A stretch of 64,000 nucleotides of DNA from Nanobdellota archaeon (GTDB lineage Archaea; Nanobdellota; Nanobdellia; Pacearchaeales; GW2011-AR1), in the NCBI GenBank assembly GCA_038045765.1, contig JBBSXN010000005.1, forward strand, positions 30,905-94,904. The letters run 5' to 3'. Under the pieces are notes generated by a model. That model did no database searches. It had not been told where the DNA came from and was given only the letters and a program-made list of their open reading frames with translations. Made by a program: the position numbers and the translations under genes. Below, in pieces: positions 14,099 to 38,729 of this stretch (its first letter is position 1; every line of letters starts with the position of its first letter).

Positions 14099-14542
14099 AT
14101 GAATAAAAAGGGGTTGTCACCTGCGATTGCTACTGCATTACTTATTTCATTAGCATTGGTGCTTGCTGCTTTGATATTCATATGGGCTAGTAGTTTATTG
14201 AAAGAAAAAAACCAGAAGTTTGGTGAACCTATAGAAAATGCTTGTGAAGATATTAATTTCGCTGCAGAAGCTTATGGTGGACAATTACACATAGTTAACA
14301 GAGGCAAAGTTCCTATACAGAGTTTTGAAATAAAGAAGAAAACTGCTGGAAGTGTTGAAAGCTTGGGAATCATCGAAGGTACGAAAACACTAATAGAAGG
14401 CGAATCAGATGCATTCACATTGGATAGTGTTTCAGCAGGAGATGAGATTCTAGCAACTCCGATTATCTATGGTAAGCAAAAAGGGCAGAGAGCACCTCAT
14501 GTTTGTGATAAAGCTGAATTGAATATTAAAGTTGAAGCTTAA
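14099..14542 (+). CDS. archaeal type IV pilin (class III signal peptide)
   Basis: MNKKG|LSPAIATALLISLALVLAALIF: a short basic leader, Gly, then a hydrophobic helix, as in archaeal DUF361-type pilin N-termini. Small beta-rich C-domain with a Cys pair. Confidence 0.65.
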   Translation: MNKKGLSPAIATALLISLALVLAALIFIWASSLLKEKNQKFGEPIENACEDINFAAEAYGGQLHIVNRGKVPIQSFEIKKKTAGSVESLGIIEGTKTLIEGESDAFTLDSVSAGDEILATPIIYGKQKGQRAPHVCDKAELNIKVEA

Positions 14543-14549
14543 AATAAAT

Positions 14550-15056
14550 ATGATAAATAAAAAAGGTATTTCTAATGTAATTGCGAGTGTTGTTTTAGTA
14601 GCACTTACAATCGTTGCTTTAGTGATTATCGCACAGTTTGTTGTGCCTTTTGTTAAAAATAATTTACAAAAAAGTGGAGAGTGTTTAGATTATCAAAGAT
14701 ATTTTGTGTTAGATAATAGCTTTGGATATAATTGTAAGAAAAATGGAATAGGTTATGTTATCTCTGTTAAAGCCGAAGGGCAAAAAGATCTTGAGGATAA
14801 AGTTAGTGGGTTGAAATTAGTTTTATATAATGGAGCGATTACCACTCCTTTAGAAGTAAAAGATGGGAAAACTAGAGAGGCAACATTCTTTATGATAGAC
14901 CCTGGAAATTTTAAGGTTCCTAAGACTGGAGAGATACGGAGTTATGCATATAATGTTAGTCAGACTTTTGATAGAGTAGAAATATATACATTACTTAAAT
15001 CTGGAAGGACCTGTGAAACTCCGAATGATCAGGGAAGTTTAGGAGCGTGTAGATAA
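14550..15056 (+). CDS. archaeal type IV pilin (class III signal peptide)
   Basis: Start moved to ATG 14550: MINKKG|ISNVIASVVLVALTIVALVII. Cys pair in the globular part. Confidence 0.65.
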   Translation: MINKKGISNVIASVVLVALTIVALVIIAQFVVPFVKNNLQKSGECLDYQRYFVLDNSFGYNCKKNGIGYVISVKAEGQKDLEDKVSGLKLVLYNGAITTPLEVKDGKTREATFFMIDPGNFKVPKTGEIRSYAYNVSQTFDRVEIYTLLKSGRTCETPNDQGSLGACR

Positions 15057-15593
15057 ATGGCTAGTAGAAAGAAAGGACAGATTTGGATTGAAACGGTACT
15101 TTATACTTTGATAGGATTGGCTTTGATAGGTATGATTCTTGCTTTTACTCTTCCCAAGATTACTAAAACGCAAGAAAAAATACTTATTGAACAGACTATC
15201 AGCTCTCTTAAAACATTAGATCAGACAATAAGTAGTGTTGTCTCAAGTGGCCCGGATAATATTAGAAGCTATGAATTAAGCTTTAAAGAAGGAGAATTAT
15301 TTATAGATGGGAGAAATGATAAAATTTATTTCCAGATAGATGATTTAAAGGATTATTATTCACAGCCAGATGTTTCTATTGAAGATGGAAGAGTTAAAAT
15401 ATTATCTTTTGGTAAAGAGGGTGCTTCAAGTGTTAAGCTTGAATTAAATTATACTAATTATGCTAATATTACTTACAACGGTGCTGATGTTGAACAAAAA
15501 ATAACAAAATCAGCAGTATCTTATAAATTTTTCTTAAGTAACTTAGGAAGTCAGAATGGTAATCCGATAAAAATTGATATAAAATTGGGGTAG
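15057..15593 (+). CDS. pilin/pseudopilin-like protein with Glu at +5
   Basis: MASRKKG|QIWIETVLYTLIGLALIGMILAF has Glu at +5 after the predicted cleavage Gly. ATG immediately follows the upstream TAA. Confidence 0.6.
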   Translation: MASRKKGQIWIETVLYTLIGLALIGMILAFTLPKITKTQEKILIEQTISSLKTLDQTISSVVSSGPDNIRSYELSFKEGELFIDGRNDKIYFQIDDLKDYYSQPDVSIEDGRVKILSFGKEGASSVKLELNYTNYANITYNGADVEQKITKSAVSYKFFLSNLGSQNGNPIKIDIKLG

Positions 15594-15630
15594 AGAGAAG
15601 TTTTATATATTGCTAGTGTTTTTAACTAAA

Positions 15631-17154
15631 ATGTCGCAGATTAATCTGAATCCAATAATTCCAGTTCTACCTAAAAATGAAGATAAGACTAAAATTGATG
15701 TTAGGTATATGCTTATGCCTCCTTATGCTTCTGCACATATATATTGGAATAAAGAAATAAATGAACTTGCATATGACCTTGAAGAACCTGTTTTAGATGA
15801 AAATGAAAAAAATATTCTATCTGAATTGGAGAAAGCAATGTATGAACTGATAAATGTTAATGTTGCTGTTGAAAAATCAGTAGAAGCGACTACCATTTAT
15901 GTTGATAAAACTGCAAGGCTGCTCATAGAAGAGTTGAATATTAAAATATCTGATGATTCATATAATAAGCTTTTTTATTATTTATTTAGAGATTTTATTG
16001 GGTTGAATATGGTTGATCCATTACTGAGAGATTATTTTATAGAAGATATAGAATGTAATGGAGTTAATAGCCCCGTTTATGTTATCCATAGAAGCTATAG
16101 AAACCTTAGAACTAATCTGGTCTTTAAAGATATTGATGAATTAGCTAGTTTTGTTGAAAAATTGGCTCAGAGAACTGGAAGATATATTTCATATGCTCAG
16201 CCCTTGCTTGATGGAAGTTTACCCGATGGAAGTAGAGTTAATGCAAGTTATACTAAAGACGTAACTAGTAAGGGTCCAACTTTCACAATAAGAAAATTCA
16301 CTAAAACTCCTTGGACACCCATCCAATTAATTACATATAATACATTAAGTCCGGAGATGTTAGCTTATTTTTGGATATTAATGCAGTATAAATCAAATAT
16401 ATTAGTTGCTGGAGGAACTGGCTCTGGTAAAACCACTCTTCTTAATGCGTTAGCCTTTTTCATACCTCCTGAAGCGAGAGTAGTAAGTATTGAAGATACT
16501 AGGGAAATAAATTTACCTAGGGAGAATTGGCTTCCTGCAGTTGCAAGACCAAGCATTGGAATTGGGAAAGTGGGTGAAGTTGATTTATTTGATTTACTTA
16601 AAAGTTCATTTAGACAGATGCCTGATTATTTGATAGTTGGAGAAGTTAGAGGTAAAGAAGCCTCTGTTCTTTTCCAAGGAATGGCTTCTGGACACCCTTC
16701 TTTGAGTACAATGCACGCGGATTCTGTTGATACTTTAATTAGAAGATTACAAACTCCACCAATAGAACTTTCTCCGAGTTTAGTTAACTCTTTAGATTGC
16801 GTAGTTATTATGTCTCATGTTGTTGTTAACAAACAAGAGACTAGAAGATTGAGAGAAGTTGTAGAAATTGTAAATGTTAATAATGATGGCACTGCTTTGA
16901 TTAATACTCCTATGAAATGGGATCCGATAAGTGATAAATTCTTCTTTAAAAAACAGAGCAAGATATTTGAGAAAATATCTGCTAAAAATGGAATAAGTCT
17001 TGAAAAACTACAAAAAGAATTTGATACTAGAACCAAACTTATATATGAACTCTATAAACGAAAGATTTTTGAGTTTAATGAGGTGGGTAAGATTGTAAAT
17101 GAGTACTATAAGAATCCAATAGAGATTCTTAGTAGGTTTAAAATACAAGAGTAG
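15631..17154 (+). CDS. type IV filament assembly ATPase (FlaI/PilB/TadA/VirB11 superfamily)
   Basis: Walker A LVAGGTGSGKTTLLNAL, SIEDTREINL, Walker B/Asp box DYLIVGEVRGKEA, His box GHPSLSTMHADS. Start moved to ATG 15631. Confidence 0.85.
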   Translation: MSQINLNPIIPVLPKNEDKTKIDVRYMLMPPYASAHIYWNKEINELAYDLEEPVLDENEKNILSELEKAMYELINVNVAVEKSVEATTIYVDKTARLLIEELNIKISDDSYNKLFYYLFRDFIGLNMVDPLLRDYFIEDIECNGVNSPVYVIHRSYRNLRTNLVFKDIDELASFVEKLAQRTGRYISYAQPLLDGSLPDGSRVNASYTKDVTSKGPTFTIRKFTKTPWTPIQLITYNTLSPEMLAYFWILMQYKSNILVAGGTGSGKTTLLNALAFFIPPEARVVSIEDTREINLPRENWLPAVARPSIGIGKVGEVDLFDLLKSSFRQMPDYLIVGEVRGKEASVLFQGMASGHPSLSTMHADSVDTLIRRLQTPPIELSPSLVNSLDCVVIMSHVVVNKQETRRLREVVEIVNVNNDGTALINTPMKWDPISDKFFFKKQSKIFEKISAKNGISLEKLQKEFDTRTKLIYELYKRKIFEFNEVGKIVNEYYKNPIEILSRFKIQE

Positions 17155-17196
17155 TATTAATGAAAGGTATTTAAAGAATATATCCTTTTTTTTATT

Positions 17197-17358
17197 ATGA
17201 ATAAAGATTACATAAACTCTGTCGCCCATTTACTTAGTGTTATGAAAGAAGATGCTGAAAAATTGGAAGAAGCGGTAGGGAAAAAAGATGCTGAGAAGGT
17301 AGCTAGCTTAAAACAGGAGATTCTTAACTTATATTCACAAATTAACTCTTTAATATGA
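17197..17358 (+). CDS. unannotated 53-aa helical micro-ORF between ATPase and platform genes
   Basis: Own translation: MNKDYINSVAHLLSVMKEDAEKLEEAVGKKDAEKVASLKQEILNLYSQINSLI. Its stop overlaps the next start (ATGA at 17355-17358). Below the ORF-track size cutoff. Confidence 0.3.
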   Translation: MNKDYINSVAHLLSVMKEDAEKLEEAVGKKDAEKVASLKQEILNLYSQINSLI

Positions 17359-18623
17359 TCGAAGAACTAATAAAAAATATAGATACTGAAATTGACATTC
17401 TTAGGGAGATATCTACATATAATCAAAGAATTGAAAATACCAATTCATCTGAAAGAAGGCTTTTATTTGAAGTAAATGAATCTTTAGTTAATAGAATGAG
17501 GATAGTCAACTCTGCTATCCCGAATATATTAAAGAATATCTCTGTTGCTAAAAAATTAAATGAAAAAGAAATTAATACTAATCTTGAAAAAATTAATATT
17601 AAAATTAATGGTGGTGGTGAAAAATCTGTTGTTTTAAATAAAGGAGATAAAGAAAAGTTTCTTAACGAGCTAAGTATTTCTGAAAAATATATATCTAACT
17701 TAAGACATATAGTTAAAAAAGAAGTGGAAGATACTGCTGGTTTCCAAAAATCTAGAGGCTATATCAAGTTTGCAAATAAAATATTTTTTAACTATGTTAG
17801 AAAAATGACTAAAGATGGTGGATTTAAAGATCTTAATAGATTTCTTAGAAAAGCTAATATAGAGATTCTTTTGGAAAGCTATATATCTCTTATATTTCTT
17901 ACAACATTAATAGCAAGCGTATTCTCAATTATAGGTGGTGCCGTATTCTTTTACATGTATACTGGAGCAATTACTCAGAGAATAATTATAAGTCTTGCAA
18001 TTATTTTTTTAATTCCAGTCGCGACTTACTTCATTCTTTATTTTTATCCTTCTACTGAAAAAGATTCTCTGGAAGGGAAGATAGATCAAGAATTGCCCTT
18101 TGCAGTTATTCATATGAGTGCGATATCTGGCTCTGGAATAGAACCTAGTAGTATTTTTAAGATAATTGGCCTTAGTAAAGAATATCCTAATCTGGCAAAG
18201 GAGATAAGAAAAATATTAAATCAAATAAATATTTATGGATATGACTTAGTTACTGCTTTAAATAACGTATCAAGAAATACTCCTAGTGCTAAGTTGGCAG
18301 AATTACTTCTTGGACTTTCAACAAATATAAGTTCTGGCGGAGCGTTACAAACCTTCTTTGAGAAAAGAGCTGAAACATTATTATTAACTTATAGACTTGA
18401 AAGAGAAAAATTTACTAAAACGGCTGAAACATTTATGGATATTTATATTACAGTAGTAATTGCTGCACCTATGATTCTTCTTTTGATATTCATATTATTA
18501 TCTGTTGGTGACTTTAATATAGGAATAAGTCCTCAGCTTGGAACAGTAGTATTAATATTACTAGTAGGGTTAGTCAATTTGGTATTTTTAGGTATAATCC
18601 ACCTAAAACAACCCGCATACTAA
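17355..18623 (+). CDS. type IV filament platform protein, T2SS-F domain (TadC/FlaJ-like) with extra N-terminal cytoplasmic domain
   Basis: ELPFAVIHMSAISGSGIEPSSIFKII...YGYDLVTALNNVS...LSTNISSGGALQTFFEKRAE is the T2SF/FlaJ pattern. TM helices flank it. The N-terminal ~170 aa are soluble. Confidence 0.75.
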   Translation: MIEELIKNIDTEIDILREISTYNQRIENTNSSERRLLFEVNESLVNRMRIVNSAIPNILKNISVAKKLNEKEINTNLEKINIKINGGGEKSVVLNKGDKEKFLNELSISEKYISNLRHIVKKEVEDTAGFQKSRGYIKFANKIFFNYVRKMTKDGGFKDLNRFLRKANIEILLESYISLIFLTTLIASVFSIIGGAVFFYMYTGAITQRIIISLAIIFLIPVATYFILYFYPSTEKDSLEGKIDQELPFAVIHMSAISGSGIEPSSIFKIIGLSKEYPNLAKEIRKILNQINIYGYDLVTALNNVSRNTPSAKLAELLLGLSTNISSGGALQTFFEKRAETLLLTYRLEREKFTKTAETFMDIYITVVIAAPMILLLIFILLSVGDFNIGISPQLGTVVLILLVGLVNLVFLGIIHLKQPAY

Positions 18624-18624: not shown

Positions 18625-19488
18625 ATGGAACTTCAAAAAATGCATTGGATTGGAATTATCTTTGGAGGAATATTAGTCTTAGTTAGCTTAATATTCTTTT
18701 ACACTGAGGTAGAAAAAAATCTATTTATTTTCTTAATTGGGCTAGGTATCGCAACTATGGCTTTTCCTTTCATAGTTGGAGTTGTAAATGAAGGTAAGAA
18801 AGAACAAGAATTAAATGAGATGTTTCTTGAATTCTCAAGAAACCTTGCTGAAAGTGTAAATATTGGTACTCCGGTAAGCAAGAGCATTATTAATATGGCT
18901 AGAAAGAAATATGGTGCACTTACTCCTCATATTGAAAAACTTGGAAATCAAATAGGCCTTGGAATCCCGGTGCATAGAGCTTTTGAAAATTTTGCTCGAG
19001 ACATTAATAATCCAGTTATAAGTAGAGCAGTTACTTTAATAAGTGAAGCAGAAAGAGCTGGAGGCGAAATAGATTATATTCTTGACTCGGTGGCTGAATC
19101 TATTTCTCAAATTGAAAAACTTAAAATTGAAAGAAAAACGGCTGTTTCAAGTTTAGTAGTCCAAGGATATATTATTTACTTTATATTTATTGGAATTATG
19201 TTGATGATGGAGTTCCAGATATTGCCTCTTGCCGCACAGGTAAGCTCATTGAAAGGACTTTCAACTAACTCACTTACTCTAGCAGAAGGAGCTTTACAAA
19301 CTCCAGTTTTCTCTAAAGATAATCTCGCTAGTTTGTTCTTATCTTTGCTTCTTGCTCAAGGATTTTTCTGTGGTTTTGCAATTGGAAAATTAACGGAAGG
19401 AAATTTGAAAGCTGGAATAAAACACTCATTTATAATGATGATATCTGCGTTCCTTATAACTAGCGGAATACATCTATTCAAAGTCTAA
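18625..19488 (+). CDS. second T2SS-F-domain platform protein (TadB-like)
   Basis: FLEFSRNLAESVNIGTPVSKSI...LGIPVHRAFENFARDINNPVISRAVTLISEAERAGGEI. N- and C-terminal TM helices. ATG follows 1 nt after the upstream TAA. Confidence 0.7.
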   Translation: MELQKMHWIGIIFGGILVLVSLIFFYTEVEKNLFIFLIGLGIATMAFPFIVGVVNEGKKEQELNEMFLEFSRNLAESVNIGTPVSKSIINMARKKYGALTPHIEKLGNQIGLGIPVHRAFENFARDINNPVISRAVTLISEAERAGGEIDYILDSVAESISQIEKLKIERKTAVSSLVVQGYIIYFIFIGIMLMMEFQILPLAAQVSSLKGLSTNSLTLAEGALQTPVFSKDNLASLFLSLLLAQGFFCGFAIGKLTEGNLKAGIKHSFIMMISAFLITSGIHLFKV

Positions 19489-19498: not shown

Positions 19499-19550
19499 TC
19501 AAGATTCTTAAGTGTCGAATCTTGAGCACAGAAAATCAGTAGATTTTCTG
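19499..19550. terminator. double hairpin between convergent genes
   Basis: TCAAGATTC-N9-GAATCTTGA (19499-19525) and CAGAAAATC-AGTA-GATTTTCTG (19529-19550). Both are perfect 9-bp stems, read directly. Confidence 0.45.
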
Positions 19551-19551: not shown

Positions 19552-20364
19552 TCAGGAAACTAACGGATAGTTTCCTGCATCCAAAAAACTATTCGTTTTT
19601 TTGATAAGGTAAAAAATCTCATTTTTTGTTTTAAATGACTCGTAGCTATAATTTAAACGTTTTAACAGTTGCTCTATCCATCCTCTTTGAGGATGGTTCA
19701 TGGGTTTTCCTGAGAGAGTTTTTGTTGAAAAACTCACTAATAGATATTTGCATTGGATGAATTTTATAATCTTCTCTGCAAGTTTATGCCCTCTCTCTTC
19801 AAGAACATCGAAAACCTTCAGTATTAGACATAAATCTACTTTAGGAAGGGGAGAATTGAGATTTCTTAAGTCGTATAAAAAAGCTTCTCCAGAAATATTA
19901 TTCATATTAAAGTATTCTTTAACTAAATCTAAATCATTTTGATTTATATCCGTTGCATAGTATTTTATTCCTTTGCTAGCAATGGCAATTGGATTAAGAC
20001 CGCAACCTAAATCTAAGATAGATTTAACATGTAATGAGGCAATTTTATCTTTTAAAAAAGAATAATCTGAAATCCTTTCTTCTGCTGATGAATGTGTCTT
20101 TAGCAAGTCTTCTATCTTTCCAGATTCTAATAACTCTTGCTGAAGACTAGAGGTATTTTGGAATCTTCCAGACATCTTTCTTAAATTGCCTCTAACTTCC
20201 TTTATAATTAGCTTTTTTTCTTTTTCAGATAAATCTTTCTTACTTACTTTATTCTTATCAAAATATGAAATTATTGCTTCTTGTACAATTGAATTTGCTA
20301 AACCGGACAATTCTTTCTTTTCTTTTACTGAAAAGCATAAAGATTTTATTAATTCTTCTTCCAT
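19552..20364 (-). CDS. FmrO/ArmA/RmtB-family 16S rRNA (guanine-N7) methyltransferase homolog
   Basis: LLKTHSSAEER, SILDLGCGLNPIAI, YYATDIN, LLVSFSTKTLSGKPMNHPQRGW and EIFYLIKK parallel remembered ArmA/RmtB motifs (LLKIHSSTNER; LDIACGLNPLAL; VSFPTRSLGGRGKGM; ELIYLIKK). 270 aa, the family-typical length. Confidence 0.6.
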   Translation of the reverse strand: MEEELIKSLCFSVKEKKELSGLANSIVQEAIISYFDKNKVSKKDLSEKEKKLIIKEVRGNLRKMSGRFQNTSSLQQELLESGKIEDLLKTHSSAEERISDYSFLKDKIASLHVKSILDLGCGLNPIAIASKGIKYYATDINQNDLDLVKEYFNMNNISGEAFLYDLRNLNSPLPKVDLCLILKVFDVLEERGHKLAEKIIKFIQCKYLLVSFSTKTLSGKPMNHPQRGWIEQLLKRLNYSYESFKTKNEIFYLIKKTNSFLDAGNYPLVS

Positions 20365-20431: not shown

Positions 20432-21148
20432 ATGGAAAAGAGAGGAATCAGTAATGTAGAGATGGTATTAGCTTTTTTGATATTTATAGGGGCAGTTTTA
20501 TTCGCAATTTATTTCTTTGCTGGACAATTTAGCCAACGTGAAAAGTCAGAGAGTATCGATTATATCTATAATGTTATAATAGACAATGCTAAAGATGAAT
20601 TTAAGACTTATTCTATAAAAGTTAACCGAACTTCTTTACCTAGCCAAGTAGAAATAATTGCTATTGATCTAGATGTTGATTTTAATCTTGATGAAAACGT
20701 TGCTGCTTATGATTTTTCTGAAAATAAATTATCTTTAAAACTGATTAGTAATATTATTTATCTAAATATTAGTGATAGTGAAGATATAATTAATTTAAGA
20801 ATAAGTAAAAGTATATTGAATAATTACACACAGTTTTCTGATTCTCCTGTGCATAATCCTTCTAATTATGAAATTGCGAGTAGTAATAGAAATACTTTAA
20901 CTTCGGAAAAAATGTTGCGTGATTTAATTAGGGAATATAATTTAGATTATAATAGATTAAAGAGTAGACTGGGTGTGAGTAGGGGATTTGAGTTTGGCTT
21001 CGGAGTAAAGTTTTCAGAAACAGAATTTATTGAAACTAATAAAGAAATACCAAAACAAGTACAATTGTTTACTAAAAATGAAAGAAAAGAAATATTAAAA
21101 GAAGATGGAAGAATTGTTTTCTCAGACTTTAAGGTGAGTGTATGGTAA
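20432..21148 (+). CDS. pilin-like protein (class III signal peptide, Glu +5)
   Basis: MEKRG|ISNVEMVLAFLIFIGAVLFAIYFF. 238 aa. TATA-like GCTATATAAATT ends about 22 nt before the ATG. Confidence 0.5.
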   Translation: MEKRGISNVEMVLAFLIFIGAVLFAIYFFAGQFSQREKSESIDYIYNVIIDNAKDEFKTYSIKVNRTSLPSQVEIIAIDLDVDFNLDENVAAYDFSENKLSLKLISNIIYLNISDSEDIINLRISKSILNNYTQFSDSPVHNPSNYEIASSNRNTLTSEKMLRDLIREYNLDYNRLKSRLGVSRGFEFGFGVKFSETEFIETNKEIPKQVQLFTKNERKEILKEDGRIVFSDFKVSVW

Positions 21149-21243: not shown

Positions 21244-21660
21244 ATGGATAAGAGAGGATTTTTGAGAATATTAGAAGCTATTTTGGCGGTTTTGATAATA
21301 CTTGGGGCTTTGCTTTTTGTAGTAATGAAAAATAATGCTCAAGATGCTGAAAACTCGGGAGATTCTCTTTGCAAAGAGGCAGAAGGAATATTAGAAGAAA
21401 TAAGCAAGAACAATAGTTTAAGAGAAAGTGTGCTTGATAGAGATGACTTAGCGATACATAATTTCTTAAGAATTAGAATAAATAATCCTTTAATTGATTA
21501 TAGAGTTAAAATATGTAATCCTGATGAATTATGCTCTTTGAGTGAAGGAGGTCTTGACAAAATAGATGTATGTGCTTCTGAAAGGTTGATAACAACAACA
21601 CCTTCAAGAACTGAATTCCAGCCAAAGAAGCTTAAAGTTTTCTTATTTAGACTACGGTAA
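21244..21660 (+). CDS. pilin-like protein (class III signal peptide)
   Basis: Start moved to ATG 21244: MDKRG|FLRILEAILAVLIILGALLFVV. Two Cys in the globular part. Confidence 0.5.
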   Translation: MDKRGFLRILEAILAVLIILGALLFVVMKNNAQDAENSGDSLCKEAEGILEEISKNNSLRESVLDRDDLAIHNFLRIRINNPLIDYRVKICNPDELCSLSEGGLDKIDVCASERLITTTPSRTEFQPKKLKVFLFRLR

Positions 21661-21725: not shown

Positions 21726-22139
21726 ATGAAGATTGAGGTGAATTTAAAGAAAAGATATTTTATTTTTATATTAGCATCTGCTTTATTGCTTGGTAGCATG
21801 ATTGCAGTTTATGCTTATGGAACAAATAATCCATCTATCTTCGGCCATAGTGCTGGTGAAGTTGCTGGAGGAGGTATTCCTTCTGGAGCAATAGTTATGT
21901 TTGATGTTGCTTGTCCTACTGGTTGGACTCGTTTTGCTGGTTTGGATGGAAAAGTTGCAAAAGGATCTGCAACATATGGCGGTATTGGTGGGTCTGATAC
22001 TCATACTCATACTCATCAGGATAGTTTTGCAACTAATCTTGACGGAGGGAGTTGGAGAACGGCTATCAGCACCTTAACTATTGATCCTTCTTCTAGTTGG
22101 CCTCCTTATGTTGAAGTTGTTTGGTGCAAGAAAAATTAA
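21726..22139 (+). CDS. N-terminally anchored protein with phage-tail-collar-like domain
   Basis: Anchor YFIFILASALLLGSMIAVYAY. Then GGIPSGAIVMFDVACPTGWTRFAGLDGKVAKGSATYGGIGGSDTHTHTH...SWPPYVEVVWCKK resembles the collar/MdpB pattern (G.I..f....P.GW..cdG...G....gGs.tHtl...PpY..l.f.ik). Confidence 0.35.
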   Translation: MKIEVNLKKRYFIFILASALLLGSMIAVYAYGTNNPSIFGHSAGEVAGGGIPSGAIVMFDVACPTGWTRFAGLDGKVAKGSATYGGIGGSDTHTHTHQDSFATNLDGGSWRTAISTLTIDPSSSWPPYVEVVWCKKN

Positions 22140-30840: not shown

Positions 30841-32086
30841 TTTTATTTTAACTTTTATTTTTGCTTTGGCGTTTATGAGTTTCTCTACTTCAGCCGTTTC
30901 ATATTATAATGGAAATGTGAGTGTAGAACAGATTATAGGATATACTCTCATTAATGATACTCAATCTGCACAAGTAGTTATGTCATATGCTTTAAAAAAT
31001 TCAGGTAGCTCTTCTACACAAATAACTATATCATTTCCAGGTTTTCCAGATGATGCGAAATATAATGTTTCTGAAACAAGAGGAAGAGATTTGAGAATTA
31101 ATCTTCCTGTTGGTGTTACAAATGTTCTTGTGTCTTTCAATCAGGATTTTGACTCTTCTTCAAAACTATCTTTAAGTCCTGGATATCGTTTGGATGATAA
31201 ATTACCTGTAAATAAAGTTTTACAACAGCAATATACTTTTGAATTAAAATCTAATGAAATTTCTTTGCTTTCGAGTGAACCTGAGATTGCTGCTGTTGGG
31301 GGAAAGATATATAATTTTATTGCGAGCAATTCCTATACTCAAAAACTAAGAATAGAAATAGTTAGTAAAAATTTACAAGCTTATGCTTATAGAACGGTTA
31401 GTGCATATAGTCAAGTTGGAGATATAATTAATCTTGCTACTACTGTAATTAATACTGGTAGCGCTCCTTTAGATGGTTTAAGTTTAGAAGATAGTATCTT
31501 TGCAACTTATTTTGAGCCAGTTTCTTCAGGATTCACTTCTTATGCTCCTCAAGAAGCAAGTGAACCTTTGTATATCTACTCTGCTTCATTGCCTACTCTC
31601 TCTCCTGGAGAAAATCATACTATTAATTATTCTGTTAAAGTTATAAGAATGGGAAGTCTTCCATTTACTGGCGCTAGAATATTGTATAAAGGAAATTTCT
31701 TAACTTCTACAGATGCTAGCGAACCAATAATATTCCCATTACAAGTTGCTCAGCAAATAAATCCTGTTAATGTAAGTAATGCTCAAGCTAGTGTGAAAGA
31801 AGAAATTTTACCTCCGAGGGAAGATTTTCTAAATGATACAATTCCTCCTGGAGAACAACCACCAATATTCAGACCTGAAGAAAAGGAAATGTTCTTTCAA
31901 CAAGTGGAAAAAGAAAATAAGAGTGAAAATATATTCATGATAATTATAATTTTATTTATGGTATTATTACTTTCTCTAGGATATTTTGCTTGGCATAGGT
32001 ATAAAGAGATTATAATGGAAAGTTTTTCAGATTTGGATTTATCATCACTAAAATTCTGGGAGAAAAATCAAAATGAAAAAGAATAA
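30827..32086 (+). CDS. 419-aa anchored surface protein (DUF11/CARDB-like region), translationally coupled to the 1743-aa gene
   Basis: Start moved to ATG 30827 (MFVRNFILTFIFALAFMSFSTSAVS), overlapping the upstream stop by 14 nt. GDIINLATTVINTGSAPLDGLSLEDS is DUF11/CARDB-like. C-terminal TM IFMIIIILFMVLLLSLGYFAW plus a tail. Confidence 0.5.
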   Translation: MFVRNFILTFIFALAFMSFSTSAVSYYNGNVSVEQIIGYTLINDTQSAQVVMSYALKNSGSSSTQITISFPGFPDDAKYNVSETRGRDLRINLPVGVTNVLVSFNQDFDSSSKLSLSPGYRLDDKLPVNKVLQQQYTFELKSNEISLLSSEPEIAAVGGKIYNFIASNSYTQKLRIEIVSKNLQAYAYRTVSAYSQVGDIINLATTVINTGSAPLDGLSLEDSIFATYFEPVSSGFTSYAPQEASEPLYIYSASLPTLSPGENHTINYSVKVIRMGSLPFTGARILYKGNFLTSTDASEPIIFPLQVAQQINPVNVSNAQASVKEEILPPREDFLNDTIPPGEQPPIFRPEEKEMFFQQVEKENKSENIFMIIIILFMVLLLSLGYFAWHRYKEIIMESFSDLDLSSLKFWEKNQNEKE

Positions 32087-35000
32087 TTTATATAATCAGA
32101 TAATTGCCTTTCTTTTTATTTTTCTTTTATTAAGTTCTAATGTTTATGCAAGTGTTTTCCAAGGTTCATCTGATAATGACAATGGGGGTATGAATGAGGC
32201 TGGAGGAGATAATCTTCCACCAGATACTAGCGATTCTAGTTCTGAACCTGTTTACGCTCAGCCAGATCCTGTTATAGAAGCGATTGCTATTGCTGCCCAG
32301 GCTGCTGGAGATTCTCATGTTAGTGCGGAAACTGTGGAAGCGGCTACTGCTGCTGTGGAAGCAGCTATTGCAGAAGCAGTTAGTTCTGGAGCATCTGAAC
32401 AAGTTGCTCAAGAAGCGGCTATCGCTGCTGCTAGAGTAATTATTGAAGGAGGTAGTAGTGTTGAGGCTGCACAAGTTGCAAGTGCGATAATTACAAGCGA
32501 TACTTCTGTTGCTGATAATGATAATCGTCCTACAGCAGATACTAATCAACAAGGGCGTGCTGAAGCAACATCTACTGCAAATCAGGTACAAGTAAATACA
32601 GATAAAAGTGATTCTGAACAGGCTAAACAAGCTACAAAAGGAATTAAAGAAAGAACAAATCAAGAGATTAGAAATAAATTAGCAGAAGGAGATCCAGATG
32701 CTAAAAAAACTTTAATACAAAGAGCAGTAGAATTTTTTAAAAATATTCCTAAGAGAGTTGCTCAAGCTGCTAGAGATGCCGTTATGCTACCAGTTAATAT
32801 TGTCAATGCAATTCGTGCAGGTGATTGGGGGGAAGTTGCTAGATTAGTAACTACTACTGCTGTTACTGTTGCTGGGCTTTTGCTTGGCGCTCCTCCAGGT
32901 CTTACAACGGCTGTTAATGAACTAATAAATCGAGTTGTGGATCAAAATAGAAATTTCAATAATATATTTCCCAACGGAGTTCCCCCATTAGATGTAAGTA
33001 CATTAAGTCCTGCTGCTGCTGAAGCCCTTGCTAATAAACTGAGGTCTGATGGTAATACTGTTCAAGTTCATACTGAAACTATTATCAATAATCGTGGTGA
33101 AACTCAAATAGTTGTTACAAGTATTCAAATTATTGGTGCTGGGGAAGGTGAAAGTAGAAGCACTCAAGTAAATATTAATGGTATAACTCATACAGTTACT
33201 ATTTCTGGTGATGGGACTGGAGTGAGTGTAAGTGCTCCTAGCCAACATCCCGAAGTGAATTTTCTTCAACCTGGTTGGGATTTTGGTGCATTCTCTCCAT
33301 TGATTGCTCCTGTTTGCGGTGATGGAAATATTGTTTTACCTGAGCAGTGTGAGATTGCTGATATTTCAGAAATATTAAGTAATCCTAGTTGTCCTAACCC
33401 TCTTACTTGTTCTGGTCGTTTAACTGCAGTGGTGCCTCCATTCGCAGCATGTATTGATACATGTCAGTGTCTTTATGATGTTCCTTCTGTTGACGATTGG
33501 CAATATATTGTGGATAGTTGTGGAGCAGAGTGCAATGCTACTAATACTATTAATTGTCTTGCAGGAGAAGTCTGTAGTAATGGTGAATGTACTACTAGTA
33601 ACTTCTGTGGAAATGGAGTTGTTGATATTGTACAAGGAGAAGAATGTGATACTGGATTGGGAGCCGTTCTTTCTTGTGCCATAGGTGAAATTTGTAATAG
33701 CTGTCAATGTATTTCTGTAACTACTAATTGTAATGATGGAATGCAGCAAGTAGGTGAAGTTTGTGATACTGGAATTCCTAGTCAGAGAATTAGATTTACT
33801 CCTCCCGTTGCTGGTAATATTGGAATCTGTAGAGCTGCTTGTGAAGATTGTATTTGTTCTGGTGGAACAAGTAATTATGGTCATATTGGGACTCCGACTT
33901 CTGGACAGATAGGTGTTGGTCCTGCACTTGGTGGTGAAGCTTGTCAAGCTAAAAATTTAGATGGAAATTATGATTTGGCTAGGGATGAAGATTGCGATGG
34001 TGGAATTGATGAAGGATGTGCGTGTGCTGTTGGAGATACTAGGGCTTGTGGAGAAAGAGGTGGTGCTTGTGGAATTGGTGGAACTCAAACATGCGTCTTA
34101 GATGCAACTTTAGGAGAAGGAAGATGGGGTGTTTGCACAGGAACTTACCAGCCTCAAAATGAAATTTGTAATGGTATAGATGATGATTGCGATTTAGAAG
34201 TAGATGAATGTGGTTGTCAAAACTTTTTCTATTTCAATAGAGCATTTTGGGAAAGTTATGATGGGCTTAGTTTTAGTCCAGTTTCTACCGTGTCAGTAAA
34301 TAATACTGTCTATTTGACTGTTGATACTAATTTAACTTATGGTGCGCCTGTTAATTTAACTATATATGAATCTGATTGTTCTAGCGGGAATTTATTTGCT
34401 ACGAGCTGTTCTCAAAAAGTAGCTGGATTGAATACTACTATAACCAACAGTTTAACAAAAATAGGAAAGATTGACTGGAATGTTAGTGATCAGGTTATTG
34501 CTTCTACAAGCGGTGCTGCTCCTGGAGGGATAGCTGATGGATTGTTGAATAGAACTTTCTTCTTTATTGCTAATACTAGTGGTCAGACAATAACTAGTAG
34601 TATGTTATTTGTTGATTTGATTAATATTATAACTCCTCCTGGAAGTTGCAATATAGATATCGTTACTGGTGTTGGTAAGTTAAATCATCGTGGAATTTAT
34701 TTCGCAAATAAGAGTATTGAATTCAATCAGAGTAGAGTTGGAGAAAATGTAAATGTTCAGTGGGTAATTGAAGGAGAAAATGAACCTATTGTAAATAAAA
34801 ATGAAAAGAGTTTTGTAATGAACTTTTCTAGAGCTGGGCAGAAGACAATTACTCTTAACGCTAATATTCCTGGATGTGCTGAACAAAACAGACAAGTTTC
34901 AATATTAGTTACTGATGGTCCTGGATTATTTACTTATATTAATGCACCATTCCATAAGCAAGTGTTCAAGTTTGCTACTGATACTATTAGTGTTAATTAT

Positions 35001-36011
35001 AGGGGTAATGAAAGTTATGTTATACAAAGTTCTGGAAGTAGTTGCCCTACTACTTTGCCTACGGTTACTTGTCTAGCTGGAAATTGTCCTAGTTCTACTT
35101 CTAATGTACCTGTAAGTTGTTCTGGTAATGGAATTACTTTAACTAATACATTAACTGGCGATAAATTTACAAATATTAATTTTAGCTGGAGTAGAAAAAT
35201 TAATGGGAATGAAAGAGTATTCAATTATGGAAATGGAAGTGCAAATGCAAGTGGGAGTATAAATTATAACCGAGCTAATGATAAATCAAATGCAATTGGT
35301 GATAAGCAGATAAAACTTATTGCTAATTATACTGTTGGTGTAATTAGTTTACAGAATACTTTCTTGAGGAACTTTACACTTGGAACTTGTATTGCGAACG
35401 GTTATCAGAGATTAAATGTCGATAGTTTGGGAAGAGTAAAAAATATTACTAATACGAGAGAAAGTGGAATTGCTTGTGGTAATTCTGGAGGAGATGGATT
35501 CTGCTGTCCTGTTGGAGAAATTTGTGGAACTAATGGATGTATACAAATAGAAAACCCTATAACCACATGTTCGAATTATACTTTAAGAGATGATTGCTTA
35601 TCTGATCCATATAGTGCTAAAGAATTTGAATATTCTTCATTTGCTCAAAGAAACGGTTTAAGTCCAGAGTGTAATGTTAATTACAATTGTGTATGGAATC
35701 AAACTGCTTGTAACTTTAATATAACTCAAGTAGATAATTTAGGTAACTTTGGTGGAAGTTGTTTAGAAAGTGCTATTCCAGTTGTTGATAGTAGTTGTGA
35801 TAATGGTGAACTGACTAAGTTAATTAATATAACTTCTACTAGTTCAGGACAACTAGCATGTTTGACTTGCCAGAGCGGTGTGTTTGAAGTTCCATGTGGA
35901 AGGCCTAGTATTGAATTGCCTTTCTTTGGAATTCAACAGATAGTGTTATCGTTAATTTCTATAACTGGGTTGTATTTGTTCCTATTTAGACGAAGGGTGT
36001 TTAGAAAATAA
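32073..36011 (+). CDS. 1312-aa surface protein: Ala-rich helical N-region, Myxococcus-type Cys-rich repeats, MopE-like metal-binding motifs, shared C-terminal module with TM anchor
   Basis: Signal IIAFLFIFLLLSSNVYAS. Ala-rich EAIAIAAQAAG...AAVEAAIAEAV (about 32265-32520). CGDGNIVLPEQCE, CGNGVVDIVQGEECDTG and CNDGMQQVGEVCDTG (about 33300-33900). DEDCDGGIDEGC and EICNGIDDDCDLEVDEC (about 33975-34212). The start overlaps the upstream gene by 14 nt. Confidence 0.6.
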   Translation: MKKNNLYNQIIAFLFIFLLLSSNVYASVFQGSSDNDNGGMNEAGGDNLPPDTSDSSSEPVYAQPDPVIEAIAIAAQAAGDSHVSAETVEAATAAVEAAIAEAVSSGASEQVAQEAAIAAARVIIEGGSSVEAAQVASAIITSDTSVADNDNRPTADTNQQGRAEATSTANQVQVNTDKSDSEQAKQATKGIKERTNQEIRNKLAEGDPDAKKTLIQRAVEFFKNIPKRVAQAARDAVMLPVNIVNAIRAGDWGEVARLVTTTAVTVAGLLLGAPPGLTTAVNELINRVVDQNRNFNNIFPNGVPPLDVSTLSPAAAEALANKLRSDGNTVQVHTETIINNRGETQIVVTSIQIIGAGEGESRSTQVNINGITHTVTISGDGTGVSVSAPSQHPEVNFLQPGWDFGAFSPLIAPVCGDGNIVLPEQCEIADISEILSNPSCPNPLTCSGRLTAVVPPFAACIDTCQCLYDVPSVDDWQYIVDSCGAECNATNTINCLAGEVCSNGECTTSNFCGNGVVDIVQGEECDTGLGAVLSCAIGEICNSCQCISVTTNCNDGMQQVGEVCDTGIPSQRIRFTPPVAGNIGICRAACEDCICSGGTSNYGHIGTPTSGQIGVGPALGGEACQAKNLDGNYDLARDEDCDGGIDEGCACAVGDTRACGERGGACGIGGTQTCVLDATLGEGRWGVCTGTYQPQNEICNGIDDDCDLEVDECGCQNFFYFNRAFWESYDGLSFSPVSTVSVNNTVYLTVDTNLTYGAPVNLTIYESDCSSGNLFATSCSQKVAGLNTTITNSLTKIGKIDWNVSDQVIASTSGAAPGGIADGLLNRTFFFIANTSGQTITSSMLFVDLINIITPPGSCNIDIVTGVGKLNHRGIYFANKSIEFNQSRVGENVNVQWVIEGENEPIVNKNEKSFVMNFSRAGQKTITLNANIPGCAEQNRQVSILVTDGPGLFTYINAPFHKQVFKFATDTISVNYRGNESYVIQSSGSSCPTTLPTVTCLAGNCPSSTSNVPVSCSGNGITLTNTLTGDKFTNINFSWSRKINGNERVFNYGNGSANASGSINYNRANDKSNAIGDKQIKLIANYTVGVISLQNTFLRNFTLGTCIANGYQRLNVDSLGRVKNITNTRESGIACGNSGGDGFCCPVGEICGTNGCIQIENPITTCSNYTLRDDCLSDPYSAKEFEYSSFAQRNGLSPECNVNYNCVWNQTACNFNITQVDNLGNFGGSCLESAIPVVDSSCDNGELTKLINITSTSSGQLACLTCQSGVFEVPCGRPSIELPFFGIQQIVLSLISITGLYLFLFRRRVFRK
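34647..36011 (+). repeat. copy B of the 1.36-kb shared C-terminal module
   Basis: See copy A (23854-25212). The mosaic of identical and divergent blocks was read directly from both copies. Confidence 0.9.
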
Positions 36012-36059
36012 GAGGATTAATGGCGCTATGTTTTTAAACCAGAAAAGGTATTAGAGAAT

Positions 36060-38729
36060 ATGAAAAATAGGATGATTTTTTTAGTATTAATTTCAATTAT
36101 ATTTGTTAGTGCTTTCTCTAGTGCAAGTTATAAATATGTTAGTGAAGATATTGTAAAGTCTTATTCGGGTGGAGAGAATGTGAGGGGTAATGTTATTTTA
36201 AGTTTTAATAATGAAAATGCTAACTCTCTGATTACCAGTAGTTATGCTGGTAGCATTAAATTAATTGATTTAATAAGATCTAATGGGTATACTATTGGAG
36301 ATTATAATTGCGATAGTGCAAATTGTGGTAAAAATTATCGTGCTACTGGAGATACTAATCAATTAGATATTAGTTCTGAAAGTCAGGCTAGTAGAATTGG
36401 AATATATTTTGAAGGTAGAGAAGTTTATGTTAGAAGTGCAGATTTTTCTATAACTAGTAATGTCGGTCTTGCTTGCTCAAAACAGATAACAATCGATGTT
36501 GGAGAAAATAATCAGTTCTTGATTCAAAATAACCTGTTTAATAGAGAAGCTATATGTAGTGATGAAAAAGAATATGGATGTTTTGATAGAAATTTAGCTA
36601 GTGGTTCATATTCTAAATTACTTATTACCCAAGAAGGAGTATGCGAGAGAGTTAATTTGAGAGATGCGCCTGCGTATGAATTTGGAGCAATGATTGAAAA
36701 TACTACTAATGGTGTTAAAGGTGATTTGAAGATGGAACTTTTTAATAATGAAAGTGCATTTGTTGGTGAGTGTAATTTACCAGCATTAGACGTTGCTGTT
36801 GGTGAGAAAAAATGTATAATTGAAAAACCAATTCTAACTAATGGAAAATATTATGCTTGTATCTCTTTGAAGGGTGGAAATGCTAAATATCAAATTAAAG
36901 CCGAAACATCTGGACAAGTATGTGGAACTGGAGATATTCTTGGTGTGCAAGAAGGTGACTTCGATTATGAAATATTTGCAAAACCATTACCTTATGATTT
37001 TATTAGAAATTTAAGTATTGCGAATGCTTTTTCAAGAAGTACTGGGGATCAGATTGAAGATTACTTAGATGATTATATCTCTGAGAATTATGAAAGAAAT
37101 TGCACTTCCGGATGCATAGTTCCAGTTGCTTTCTATGGAGTTAATCAACATCTAGATTTCAATAATATATCTATTGAATATGATGCTAGTCCTGGAAATG
37201 TCGTAACTAGAAATATATTGAAAGAAATAACTCAGACTGATTCTAAAATATCTAGTGGGAATTTGAGTCTTGAATTAAGTTATGCCAAATTTAAAACACC
37301 TAGTAAGACAGTAAATAATAAAACTAGTTTTAACTTATTTATTACTGGAAAACCTTTGTTTACTACTCCTTTAAATTTAGACTTAACACCTGGTTTTGAT
37401 TTTAATGTAAATCCTAAATTTGCATTTATAGGTCTTCCGACAAGTTTTGTTGCATTGACTAGTGAGAATATTACTTCGGGAGTTTGGAAGTTTGGTGATG
37501 GAGAACAAAAAACGGCTAGTGGTAAAGTTGTTGAACATATATATGGTTCTCCAGGAAATTATAATCTAGATGTAAGCTTAACAAATACTCGAGGATTTAC
37601 TGCTAGAAAAACTTTCTCGATTAGTGTTGGAAATGCTAGTGAATCTGCAGGAATACTTCTTAATTTGAGTAAAATTAAGATAAATAAGATGAATAGCTAC
37701 ACTAAACAACAACCTATCTGGATACAGAATTATATTAATAAAAAATTAAATGTAAGTGAAGCTGAAAAAGAGATTATTGTTCTTGATGGTCGATTAAGAA
37801 ATGCAAGAAATGAGTCAGATTATATCAATATAGTTGAAGGTTTAATTGGATTAAACCTAGTTGATGGATTTAAGGTTGGTAAAAAGGGAGTTTTACCGTT
37901 TAGTCTAGGATTTTCAAGTATCGACGTCTCTTATATTGAGAATATATCTAACTATAAAGTCCCTGAAGACAAGAGAGAATTATTAAAAGAAAATATTATA
38001 TTTCTAAATGGGGAGAATTATGATTCTCAAATTAGTTTTGAAGAGGTCGTTTTAGTTTCTGGTTCAAGTGAAGAGGGCCTGTATACTAAAATTAATATAA
38101 ATCCTGGTGTAAAAATTGCTAGTAAAGGTAAAGATTATCTTATCATTGACTATCCTTTAGAGCAAATAACTTTCTCCAAAGATTACAAAGCAGAAAGCAT
38201 TTCAGGAGATTATCAGTCTGGTACATATATTCCTCTTGCTGGGGAGAATATAGAATTTATACTTCCTGGGAAAGTTAGTTTTATTGATCTTGGTGCTTAT
38301 ATATCTCCAATTGTATCTGAAGTAGGAGAATATGAGGAAGATATTTTTATAGCTAAAAAATATCCTACTAGTTGGGTAGTTATTGGTTTGATTACGATAT
38401 TTATTATCACATTTATTTTGTATATTGCCTTACAGGAATGGTATAAAAAACATTATGAATCTTATTTATTCCCTAATAAAGATGATTTATACAACCTTAT
38501 AAATTTCATATATAATTCTAGGAATAGTAGATTAAATGATGATGTTATTAAGAAGAAACTTAATGCTAATAAATGGAATGGTGAACAGATAAGCTATGCT
38601 TTCAAAAAGATTGATAGAAAGAGAACTGGAATGTTTGAAATCCCTCTATTTAGAGGTAGAGAACAAGAGAAGATAAGGGAGGAAATAGCTAAAAGACAAC
38701 CTGGTTTTAGAGATGGGAAGATTTATTAA
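36060..38729 (+). CDS. 889-aa type-I membrane surface protein with PKD domain and ~110-aa cytoplasmic tail domain
   Basis: Signal MIFLVLISIIFVSAFSSAS. GVWKFGDGEQKTASGKVVEHIYGSPGNYNLDVSLTNTRG (PKD). TM WVVIGLITIFIITFILYIAL followed by QEWYKKHYESYLFPNKDDLYNLINFIYNSRN... Confidence 0.6.
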   Translation: MKNRMIFLVLISIIFVSAFSSASYKYVSEDIVKSYSGGENVRGNVILSFNNENANSLITSSYAGSIKLIDLIRSNGYTIGDYNCDSANCGKNYRATGDTNQLDISSESQASRIGIYFEGREVYVRSADFSITSNVGLACSKQITIDVGENNQFLIQNNLFNREAICSDEKEYGCFDRNLASGSYSKLLITQEGVCERVNLRDAPAYEFGAMIENTTNGVKGDLKMELFNNESAFVGECNLPALDVAVGEKKCIIEKPILTNGKYYACISLKGGNAKYQIKAETSGQVCGTGDILGVQEGDFDYEIFAKPLPYDFIRNLSIANAFSRSTGDQIEDYLDDYISENYERNCTSGCIVPVAFYGVNQHLDFNNISIEYDASPGNVVTRNILKEITQTDSKISSGNLSLELSYAKFKTPSKTVNNKTSFNLFITGKPLFTTPLNLDLTPGFDFNVNPKFAFIGLPTSFVALTSENITSGVWKFGDGEQKTASGKVVEHIYGSPGNYNLDVSLTNTRGFTARKTFSISVGNASESAGILLNLSKIKINKMNSYTKQQPIWIQNYINKKLNVSEAEKEIIVLDGRLRNARNESDYINIVEGLIGLNLVDGFKVGKKGVLPFSLGFSSIDVSYIENISNYKVPEDKRELLKENIIFLNGENYDSQISFEEVVLVSGSSEEGLYTKININPGVKIASKGKDYLIIDYPLEQITFSKDYKAESISGDYQSGTYIPLAGENIEFILPGKVSFIDLGAYISPIVSEVGEYEEDIFIAKKYPTSWVVIGLITIFIITFILYIALQEWYKKHYESYLFPNKDDLYNLINFIYNSRNSRLNDDVIKKKLNANKWNGEQISYAFKKIDRKRTGMFEIPLFRGREQEKIREEIAKRQPGFRDGKIY

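Follow-up and report, generated by a model that had tools for sequence, protein, structure and literature searches.

Archaeal pilus loci commonly hold, besides the pilus genes, large C-terminally anchored 'S-layer-like' and secreted 'adhesin-like' proteins rich in cysteine, and DUF2341 has been predicted to be an adhesin domain of archaeal pili (Makarova, Koonin and Albers 2016, PMC4858521). In DPANN archaea (Diapherotrites, Parvarchaeota, Aenigmarchaeota, Nanoarchaeota, Nanohaloarchaeota) pili and large surface proteins with LamG and PKD domains have been proposed as host-attachment factors (Hamm et al., Jarett et al.; PMC6642349, PMC6142677, PMC4858521), and the SPEARE proteins of Nanohaloarchaeota have been proposed for the same role (PMC6642349). 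Here we analyse a 64-kb stretch of archaeal DNA (the window; all positions are given in window numbering; GC content about 31%) in which a type IV pilus locus adjoins a row of genes for large surface proteins. An earlier reading of the letters alone, the sequence-only reading, had taken the region 14099-38729 to encode filament and adhesin heads as one organelle and had known of no system of this composition. On balance, and with reserve, we favour a different view, i.e. an Epd/Tad-like adhesion pilus locus beside a hypervariable slot of independently transcribed, mostly self-membrane-anchored adhesin-like proteins. This is a lineage-specific enlargement of a known archaeal pilus neighbourhood and not a new organelle, pilus loci with large anchored or secreted accessory proteins having been described before (PMC4858521).

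The pilus genes resemble those of the Epd pilus of Methanococcus maripaludis and of the bacterial Tad pilus, in which one PilB-type ATPase is encoded beside two PilC/TadB-TadC-like platform paralogues (PMC4371748). We defined the Epd/Tad-like subtype from that description, and a single ATPase with two platform paralogues is what the window contains. Counts of loci and relatives refer to a comparison set of about 160 related loci, 80 centred on the pilus ATPase and 80 centred on the conserved tail of p889, onto all of which the window proteins were mapped. L-numbers denote single loci of this set, surface proteins are named by their length in amino acids (aa; p92, p137, p419, p889, p997, p1312, p1743), and pil1-5 are the five pilin-like genes. 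The pilus region reads as follows.

14099..14542, + strand: pil1, pilin 1, 147 aa; class III signal KKG/LSPAIA; TIGR02537 30.9 bits (cutoff 20); weak UpsA match
14532..15056, + strand: pil2, pilin 2; open reading frame (ORF) from TTG 14532, likely start ATG 14550; class III signal KKG/ISNVIA
15057..15593, + strand: pil3, pilin 3, 178 aa; KKG/QIWIE, an Epd-like KGQ site; kept in 74 loci
15610..17154, + strand: assembly ATPase, PilB/GspE2-type; likely start ATG 15631; T2SSE 2e-32
17197..17358, + strand: 53-aa micro-ORF, cytoplasmic, helical; overlaps platform half 1 by 4 nucleotides (nt); tblastn matches in 38 loci
17355..18623, + strand: platform half 1, 422 aa; single T2SSF domain, 1.3e-14
18625..19488, + strand: platform half 2, 287 aa; single T2SSF domain, 5.4e-16
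19552..20364, - strand: FmrO-like methyltransferase (rRNA-type), antisense, between the platform and minor pilin genes; FmrO 7.5e-16
20432..21148, + strand: pil4, minor pilin-like; signal KRG/ISNVE
21244..21660, + strand: pil5, minor pilin-like; signal KRG/FLRILE; likely start ATG 21244; homologues align from residue 35

A class III-type signal motif ([KR]G followed by a hydrophobic helix) is present in all five pilin-like proteins; Pfam Pilin_N remains below threshold for pil1 and pil2 (pil2 E = 5e-4, under the gathering score). The ATPase has its best PDB match in A. fulgidus GspE2 (2OAP), with 388 bits versus 279 bits for FlaI, and scores 395 bits against the FlaI equivalog model, whose cutoff is 550. 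Because no archaellin (PF01917/Arch_flagellin) or FlaC-H/FlaX accessory gene was matched by Pfam in the region, and because the ATPase is nearer to GspE2 than to FlaI and stays under the FlaI equivalog cutoff, the genes form a non-archaellar type IV pilus locus, in line with the earlier view of an adhesion-type filament. The 53-aa micro-ORF, with counterparts in 38 relatives and a TATA box of its own, is a real conserved gene. The split of the platform into two single-T2SSF genes is kept in 96 loci, and the methyltransferase has the identical position in 84.

Downstream of pil5, and reaching to arvA, lies the slot with the surface-protein genes.

21726..22139, + strand: p137, 137 aa, N-terminal anchor; C-terminal HxH domain, phage fibre/baseplate-like; lineage-specific
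22219..25212, + strand: p997, Cys-rich head-stalk-anchor protein; Gly_rich_2 head, conserved module at about 285-415, PKD-like middle, C-terminal transmembrane (TM) segment
25266..25544, + strand: p92, lipoprotein-like ORF (LLVSGC) that opens the cassette; also kept in L086 (92 aa) and L085 (78 aa)
25609..30840, + strand: p1743, secreted, unanchored; discoidin, 2x LamG, PKD, transglutaminase-like core
30827..32086, + strand: p419, anchored partner; its orthologues have 411 aa in L083 and 420 aa in L086
32073..36011, + strand: p1312, the other Cys-rich anchored protein; N-terminus rich in Ala, Cys repeats of the CG[DN]G type, paralogous to p997 over its C-terminal 590 aa
36060..38729, + strand: p889, type I membrane protein; ectodomain of beta-sandwich/PKD type, helical domain, TM segment at 768-786, conserved cytoplasmic tail of about 100 aa

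All ORFs, coordinates, signal peptides and anchors of the sequence-only reading were recovered; its gene list was incomplete, however, as the conserved 92-aa ORF at 25266-25544 had been overlooked. Sec-type signal peptides are present in all five large proteins and C-terminal TM segments in four of them, as had been noted, but p889 does not end in its TM segment and continues for about 100 cytoplasmic residues. Profile searches with Pfam bear out the glycine-rich head of p997 (Gly_rich_2, 1.9e-12), the discoidin (F5_F8_type_C, 3.5e-10), LamG (Laminin_G_3, 7e-36 in two stretches) and PKD (1e-15) domains of p1743, and the PKD domain of p889 (1.4e-09). The other modules named previously are less secure: Transglut_core in p1743 reaches 20.9 bits, under the gathering score of 23, with C1447 and H1485 present and Glu1500 replacing the Asp of the triad; MopE (PF11617) in p1312 has E = 0.0019, under its cutoff; and the Myxococcus-type Cys repeat of p1312 exists as a motif, CG[DN]G-x-E-x-C (also written CG[DN]G..E.C), seen three times, with no NCBIfam match to TIGR02232 at E <= 0.05. 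The Cys-rich orthologue in L044 does pass PF11617 (8e-11). Calling the whole row giant Cys-rich proteins fits p997 (36 Cys) and p1312 (60 Cys) and does not fit the other three.

The genes of p1743 and p419 overlap by 14 nt (30827-30840), as had been reported, and a second overlap of 14 nt lies at the other end of p419 (32073-32086), so that p419 would be translationally coupled to both neighbours. For p419 itself no family or PDB match was found, and PDB sequence searches of p997, p1312, p419 and p1743 returned nothing beyond PKD and LamG domains. The C-termini of p997 and p1312 (genes 24900-25212 and 35700-36011) are near-identical, ...PCGRPSIELPFFG-TM-RR, also given as ...CLTCQSGVFEVPCGRPSIELPFFG-TM-RR, and resemble a CGP/PGF-type sorting signal; among the NCBIfam CTERM models, archaeosortase-type signals (PGF-CTERM and similar) had no match in any anchored protein. 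A structural model of p889 (AlphaFold 2, AF2; predicted local distance difference test score, pLDDT, 82.9) consists of a chain of beta-sandwiches including PKD, a helical domain, a further beta domain, the TM helix and a helical cytoplasmic tail, for which Foldseek gave generic Ig, PKD and alpha-2-macroglobulin-like bead matches only. The tail is the most conserved part of the protein, with 55% mean pairwise identity versus 25-36% in the ectodomain, and matches no known domain or family. A homologue search with the tail returned only truncated fragments on short contigs, and the p889-centred loci of the comparison set were found by a metagenome scan with a tail-only alignment.

p137 had been labelled phage-tail-collar-like. 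Collar (PF07484) was not matched in Pfam, NCBIfam, PHROGs or PDB, and the AF2 model (pLDDT 73.7) had no Foldseek match; with all direct tests negative, the structural one included, and with transitive links only, the label was rejected. An exhaustive search places the C-terminal domain of p137 in a family with 1228 cluster representatives, where it often occurs in 3-6 tandem copies in huge proteins, alongside DUF2341 and LamG; DUF2341 is found in 8 of 38 members. In the homologue P0072, T4 baseplate Gp10_C scores above threshold over the p137-homologous stretch, and homologues provide a further, indirect link to YmaF. 'Phage fibre/baseplate-like' is thus a fair description of p137, and Collar has no direct support.

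In the window, TATA-like hexamers begin 27-29 nt before the start codon (ATG) of trxR, pil1, the ATPase gene (ATG 15631), the 53-aa ORF, pil4, p137, p997, p1743, p889 and arvA, e.g. at -27 for pil1, -29/-27 for pil4 and -29/-30 for arvA, and none precedes pil2, pil3, platform half 2, pil5, p419 or p1312. Before platform half 1 the window shows a single hexamer, at -26, which only 4% of relatives share. A TATA box at -33 to -25 is present in relatives for pil1 (95%), pil4 (96%), the 53-aa ORF (89%, at -27), arvA (88%), p889 (59%) and the ATPase gene (53%), and for the Cys-rich gene in 81% (narrower motif set, -32 to -24, background 3.2%); internal genes have one in 4-16% of relatives (pil5 6%), with a background of 7%. 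Because positioned and conserved TATA boxes precede nine genes of the region and arvA, the data indicate leaderless mRNAs and at least eight separate transcription units rather than one operon. The pilus genes appear to lie in four leaderless units, with pil2 probably co-transcribed with pil1 and pil5 predicted to be co-transcribed with pil4.

That the pilus displays adhesin or enzyme heads, e.g. via its minor pilins, draws on the position of pil4 and pil5, which directly precede the slot in about 80 loci, on the co-occurrence of the p137 family with DUF2341, on the pilin-like adhesin architecture of one family member (P0064: class III signal, DUF2341, p137-like repeats and LamG), and on PilY1-type tip display, which is established in bacteria (cited in PMC4858521). 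Neither p137 nor any large protein of the window has a class III signal, however; the C-terminal TM segments of four of the five large proteins and the N-terminal anchor of p137 fix them in the membrane, the promoters are separate, housekeeping genes intervene between pilins and slot in one subclade, and three of the five large proteins are missing from most relatives. C-terminal anchors in four of five place these proteins in the cell's own membrane, so that they cannot be heads of the filament. We therefore regard one physical organelle as improbable, given that pilin signals are missing from the large proteins, that these proteins sit anchored in the membrane and are expressed from promoters of their own, and that most of them are restricted to the lineage; pilus and adhesins would rather be parallel parts of an attachment repertoire.

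A palindrome, CAAGATT-N5/N11-AATCTTG, occurs three times in the window (14019-14037, 19500-19524, 21199-21217; 0.07 copies expected), in each case at an intergenic spot in the pilus locus. It was not found at equivalent places in relatives, the closest ones included, and a role as conserved pilus operator was rejected for this reason; it could be a lineage-specific hairpin, an operator or a tiny mobile repeat.

Across the clade the gene order is trxR; pil1, pil2, pil3; ATPase; 53-aa ORF, platform 1, platform 2; methyltransferase (antisense); pil4, pil5; one Cys-rich signal-plus-anchor protein; p889 homologue; arvA, arvB, arvC; CCA. In most relatives the slot has two genes, encoding a Cys-rich head-stalk-anchor protein and a PKD/Ig-like type I membrane protein. 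Of the 43 pilus-centred loci that extend 7 kb or more downstream, 30 have the Cys-rich type and 28 have p889; conversely, pilus genes lie upstream in 27 of the 30 p889-centred loci with at least 5 kb of upstream sequence. The p889 family occurs in 88 loci and is single-copy. The two large-protein families, the Cys-rich 997/1312-aa type and p889, are thus stably linked to the pilus locus, so that loss of the linkage in relatives, which the earlier reading had named as refuting it, does not hold for them; p137, p92, p1743, p419 and the second Cys-rich copy are subclade-only. In one subclade (L053-L079) archease and RtcB genes lie between pil5 and the Cys-rich gene; the RtcB ORFs of L074, L076 and L078 have 745-969 aa, about twice the usual length, and probably contain an intein. 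For exposed parts median identities are 30-41% among the pilins, 34% in p889 and 30% in the Cys-rich protein, whereas the ATPase reaches 73%, ArvA 79% and TrxR 71%. Exposed components diverge far faster than cytoplasmic ones, in agreement with the surface-protein diversification reported for Nanoarchaeota (PMC6142677).

In the window the slot (pil5 to arvA) measures 17.1 kb versus 2.7-5.2 kb in relatives, the extra material being p137, the Gly-rich head of p997, p92, p1743, p419 and p1312. p137, p92, p1743, p419 and the second Cys-rich copy are limited to a small subclade; the expanded architecture is found in the close relatives L086 (GCA_030648375.1), L085/L083 (JGI Ga0233424_10000558) and L087, and partially in L046, p1743 occurring only in the window subclade and L046. 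p997 and p1312 are 69% identical over 590 aa, with the final 120 aa or so near-identical, and their genes contain a direct repeat.

23853..25198, + strand: direct repeat copy 1, 3' part of the p997 gene; 1357-bp alignment, 86% identity to copy 2
34646..35994, + strand: direct repeat copy 2, 3' part of the p1312 gene; mosaic with blocks of 99-100% identity

The blocks of 99-100% identity within a repeat of 86% suggest gene conversion. The repeats bracket about 9.4 kb that hold the cassette p92-p1743-p419 and the N-terminal part of p1312, and the expansion arose by duplication of the Cys-rich gene, with the cassette between the copies. The contig of L084, from the same population of the Joint Genome Institute (JGI) data, matches L085 at 99.9% identity as far as the first repeat and, starting with the second repeat, matches L083 at 99.99% identity; it omits the cassette exactly across a repeat of 1287 bp and 99.1% identity; it would represent either a recombinational deletion or an assembler collapse. 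Moreover, L127 has three tandem Cys-rich genes, and Cys-rich orthologues combine differing N-terminal heads (Gly_rich_2, LamG or none) with a conserved C-terminal stalk and anchor. A foreign or viral origin of the high-GC surface genes was rejected, their GC content at third codon positions (GC3, 0.155-0.17) being native; the GC excess of the slot genes sits in second codon positions (GC2) and reflects amino-acid composition. Taken together, the slot appears to be a fast-evolving, recombination-prone, hypervariable surface-protein locus built of native genes. In L085 a fragment of an IS240-family DDE transposase and a DUF2080 ORF lie at 13388-14007 of that locus, between the first Cys-rich gene and a 1734-aa gene; the IS240 fragment marks the slot as an insertion hot spot.

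On its downstream side p889 adjoins genes in the order GTPase, OapB-domain, OapC-domain, which by domain profiles is the order of the ArvABC operon, in which the Arf-like ArvA is required by Haloferax to form vesicles (PMC10927574).

38722..38729, + strand: arvA TATA box TTTATTAA, within the last codons and the stop of the p889 gene
38751..40563, + strand: arvA/arvB/arvC-like genes (GTPase, OapB, OapC); MMR_HSR1 2.8e-15, OapB 1.4e-15, OapC 2e-21

arvABC is a conserved downstream boundary of the slot and lies outside the pilus/adhesin set. TTTATTAA is found at -29/-30 from the ATG of arvA in 75 of 95 relatives and is read in two frames, yielding ...GKIY-stop in the clade of the window and ...RFIKR... 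outside it; since it is kept despite the two reading frames, conservation is at the DNA level. The idea that p889 is the first gene of an arvA operon was rejected on account of this TATA box. Between arvB and arvC there is a DUF6970 ORF (39825-40124; 99 aa, secreted, Cys-rich, 1.2e-16) that extends 38 nt beyond the annotated GTG start of arvC, the true start of arvC probably being further downstream.

From this adjacency it may be asked whether p889 works with ArvABC, as receptor or cargo with a tail that recruits ArvA, and not with the pilus. In 69 of 70 loci fewer than 200 nt separate the end of p889 from the start of arvA; the adjacency even holds in L081, where p889 is 29% identical and the nearest pilin-like gene lies about 9.5 kb upstream with unrelated genes in between, and, as described above, the tail is the best conserved part of p889 and ArvA is required for Haloferax vesicles. 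Yet the TATA box of arvA, at -29 in 88% of relatives, speaks against an obligate operon, L075 has arvABC without p889, the adjacency of p889 and arvA is no better than that of CCA or trxR, and the tail has no known domain; we regard this reading as very improbable. A variant that would keep the pilus in play, in which p889 is a contact receptor whose tail recruits ArvA, coupling host attachment to membrane remodelling (vesicles, bridges) with repeat recombination switching the cassette, is very improbable as well; if it were true, switching the cassette in or out by recombination between the 1.3-kb repeats would change host specificity.

The main rival to an adhesin slot is an envelope function, i.e. 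the Cys-rich protein and p889 would be ordinary S-layer-like or stalk constituents that are near the pilus by descent, with only the cassette related to adhesion. Nearly the whole clade has p889, as a single copy (88 loci), its Ig-like/PKD beta-sandwiches with a C-terminal TM segment follow a pattern proposed for S-layer-type proteins of Nanobdella (10.1101/2023.10.27.564410), Makarova et al. termed analogous C-terminally anchored proteins of pilus loci 'S-layer-like' (PMC4858521), each gene has a separate promoter, and the flanking housekeeping genes are equally syntenic. A strongly conserved cytoplasmic tail of about 100 aa is not expected of S-layer proteins, however, the head swapping, copy-number change and recombination of the Cys-rich genes are more typical of adhesins than of lattice proteins, and L075 apparently lacks both genes at the site, though they may be elsewhere in its genome. 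On this evidence we consider an envelope function rather unlikely, although more serious than the other alternatives.

Several observations weigh against the view of an adhesion pilus beside an adhesin slot. The upstream trxR and the downstream arvABC/CCA are as conserved in position as the surface genes; since flanking housekeeping genes are equally fixed, synteny is not specific evidence of joint function, and at this phylogenetic depth it largely reflects inheritance, so that the linkage may be purely historical. L075 has kept pilus genes and arvABC with both surface genes absent at the site, and L002 and L071 are rearranged after the pilin genes. Anchored surface-protein genes are common in the source genome, some of them far from pilus genes. 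The transglutaminase-like call in p1743 is weak, being sub-threshold, L084 possibly reflects an assembly collapse, and LamG, discoidin, PKD and Ig-like domains also occur in enzymes and S-layer proteins. Additionally, no prepilin peptidase (PibD/EppA/FlaK, Peptidase_A24) was found among the window ORFs scanned, and it may lie outside the 64 kb; a 6-TM protein at 61204-61932 has no Pfam match.

An adhesion role of the slot proteins we infer from their domain types (LamG, discoidin, PKD, Ig-like) and their evolutionary behaviour. In the arrangement that we favour, an adhesion pilus beside adhesin-like proteins, the pilus may provide long-range contact, and the adhesin-like proteins, anchored in the cell's own membrane, would attach at close range to glycan or protein ligands presented by a host cell or a substrate. 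The secreted lectin/protease-like p1743 would probably be tethered at the surface by the translationally coupled p419, and the slot may diversify as heads are swapped, genes are duplicated or converted, and the 1.3-kb repeats recombine with each other.

The window as a whole can be assigned to a DPANN archaeon of the Pacearchaeota/Woesearchaeota type, because of archaeal marker genes and of the labels of the closest ATPase loci. It encodes aCPSF1, an archaeal proteasome beta subunit, a PriS-like primase, an archaeal CCA-adding enzyme and Rad50/Mre11, and the 80 closest public pilus-ATPase loci, with 68-81% identity, are all from metagenome-assembled genomes labelled Pacearchaeota, Woesearchaeota, Nanoarchaeota, Nanoarchaeia, Parvarchaeum or 'archaeon'. 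The RNA of the signal recognition particle (SRP) lies at 54190-54453 on the - strand (Archaea_SRP, 89.4 bits, slightly under the Rfam gathering score of 96.5). With Rfam defaults the sole match at this locus is a borderline Bacteria_small_SRP (54246-54343), which misleads domain assignment; a bacterial origin on this ground was rejected, as the locus has an archaeal SRP RNA and archaeal neighbours.

The run of + strand genes, seen before at 14099-38729 with the methyltransferase as exception, is real but extends from 12742 to 41849, where the GC skew flips, and is therefore not specific to the pilus/surface region. At about 41850, directly after the oapABC (origin-associated) genes and the CCA gene, gene orientation changes from + to - and the GC skew changes sign, which may mark a replication-related boundary. 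Three more signal-plus-anchor surface proteins are encoded outside the region, at 7157-9064, 9057-10385 and 58227-60197; the first has 635 aa, among them 30 Cys, and a cytoplasmic tail rich in Pro, the second has 442 aa, and the third contains Big_13 Ig-like domains. Two additional pilin-like genes lie on the - strand (50994-51545, 51547-52077). Elsewhere three paralogues of 442-505 aa (3181-4533, 4530-6047 and, on the - strand, 43712-45040) are phosphohistidine-domain proteins, of which only the C-terminal 100 aa or so match, namely the mobile domain of phosphoenolpyruvate (PEP)-utilising enzymes as in PEP synthase and pyruvate phosphate dikinase (PPDK).

Pacearchaeota and Woesearchaeota are abundant and uncultured, and the clade-wide block defined here, i.e. 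an Epd-like pilus, an anchored protein with variable head, a conserved PKD protein with cytoplasmic tail, and arvABC, supplies defined targets for raising antibodies, for heterologous expression and metaproteomics, and for testing by population genomics how host range evolves. The slot is a hot spot in which adhesin-like genes duplicate, swap and possibly get deleted.

Compared with the Epd and Tad pili, the locus agrees not only in its ATPase and platform genes, but also in having several class III-signal pilins, one with a KGQ site, and neither a retraction ATPase nor archaellum accessory genes; it differs in the conserved 53-aa ORF and the antisense FmrO-like methyltransferase inside the locus, and in that no EppA-type or other prepilin peptidase accompanies it among the ORFs scanned. 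The loci surveyed by Makarova et al. (PMC4858521) likewise have a pilus core and, after it, two large proteins, one anchored at its C-terminus and one with a signal peptide, in which many cysteines are conserved; they have fast-evolving components too, and are linked to the window by DUF2341 through the domain family of p137; that survey predates most DPANN genomes and is without the pilus-Cys-rich-p889-arvABC block, the 17-kb expansion and the repeat-bracketed cassette. With SPEARE (Hamm et al. 2019, PMC6642349) the window shares very large DPANN surface proteins with LamG and other adhesion domains, the protease-type domain of SPEARE having a candidate counterpart in the transglutaminase-like core of p1743, and the TM segment near the C-terminus and the highly conserved intracellular part of SPEARE may recall the tail of p889; unlike in SPEARE, the functions are spread over proteins of 419-1743 aa, and there is no restriction-endonuclease, serine-protease or toxin domain. 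By analogy, minor pilins and a large adhesin beside a pilus locus are reminiscent of PilY1 and the minor-pilin tip adhesins of bacterial type IVa pili, and a pilus that is needed for contact between episymbiont and host is known from episymbiotic Saccharibacteria (PMC9894109); here, however, the machinery is archaeal, and the large proteins are membrane-anchored without pilin signals, which makes tip display unlikely. The ArvABC (OapABC) operon of Haloferax volcanii (PMC10927574) has the same order of GTPase, OapB-domain and OapC-domain genes, whereas here a type I membrane protein with a conserved tail precedes arvA and its gene carries the arvA TATA box; arvABC is a neighbour of the pilus and surface genes only. 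As large accessory proteins at pilus loci and giant LamG/PKD adhesins of DPANN archaea were described or proposed earlier, the window does not hold a new machine. Apparently undescribed in the literature are the block shared across the clade, the slot with its swapped heads and the cassette between the repeats, but all three are variations on this known theme.

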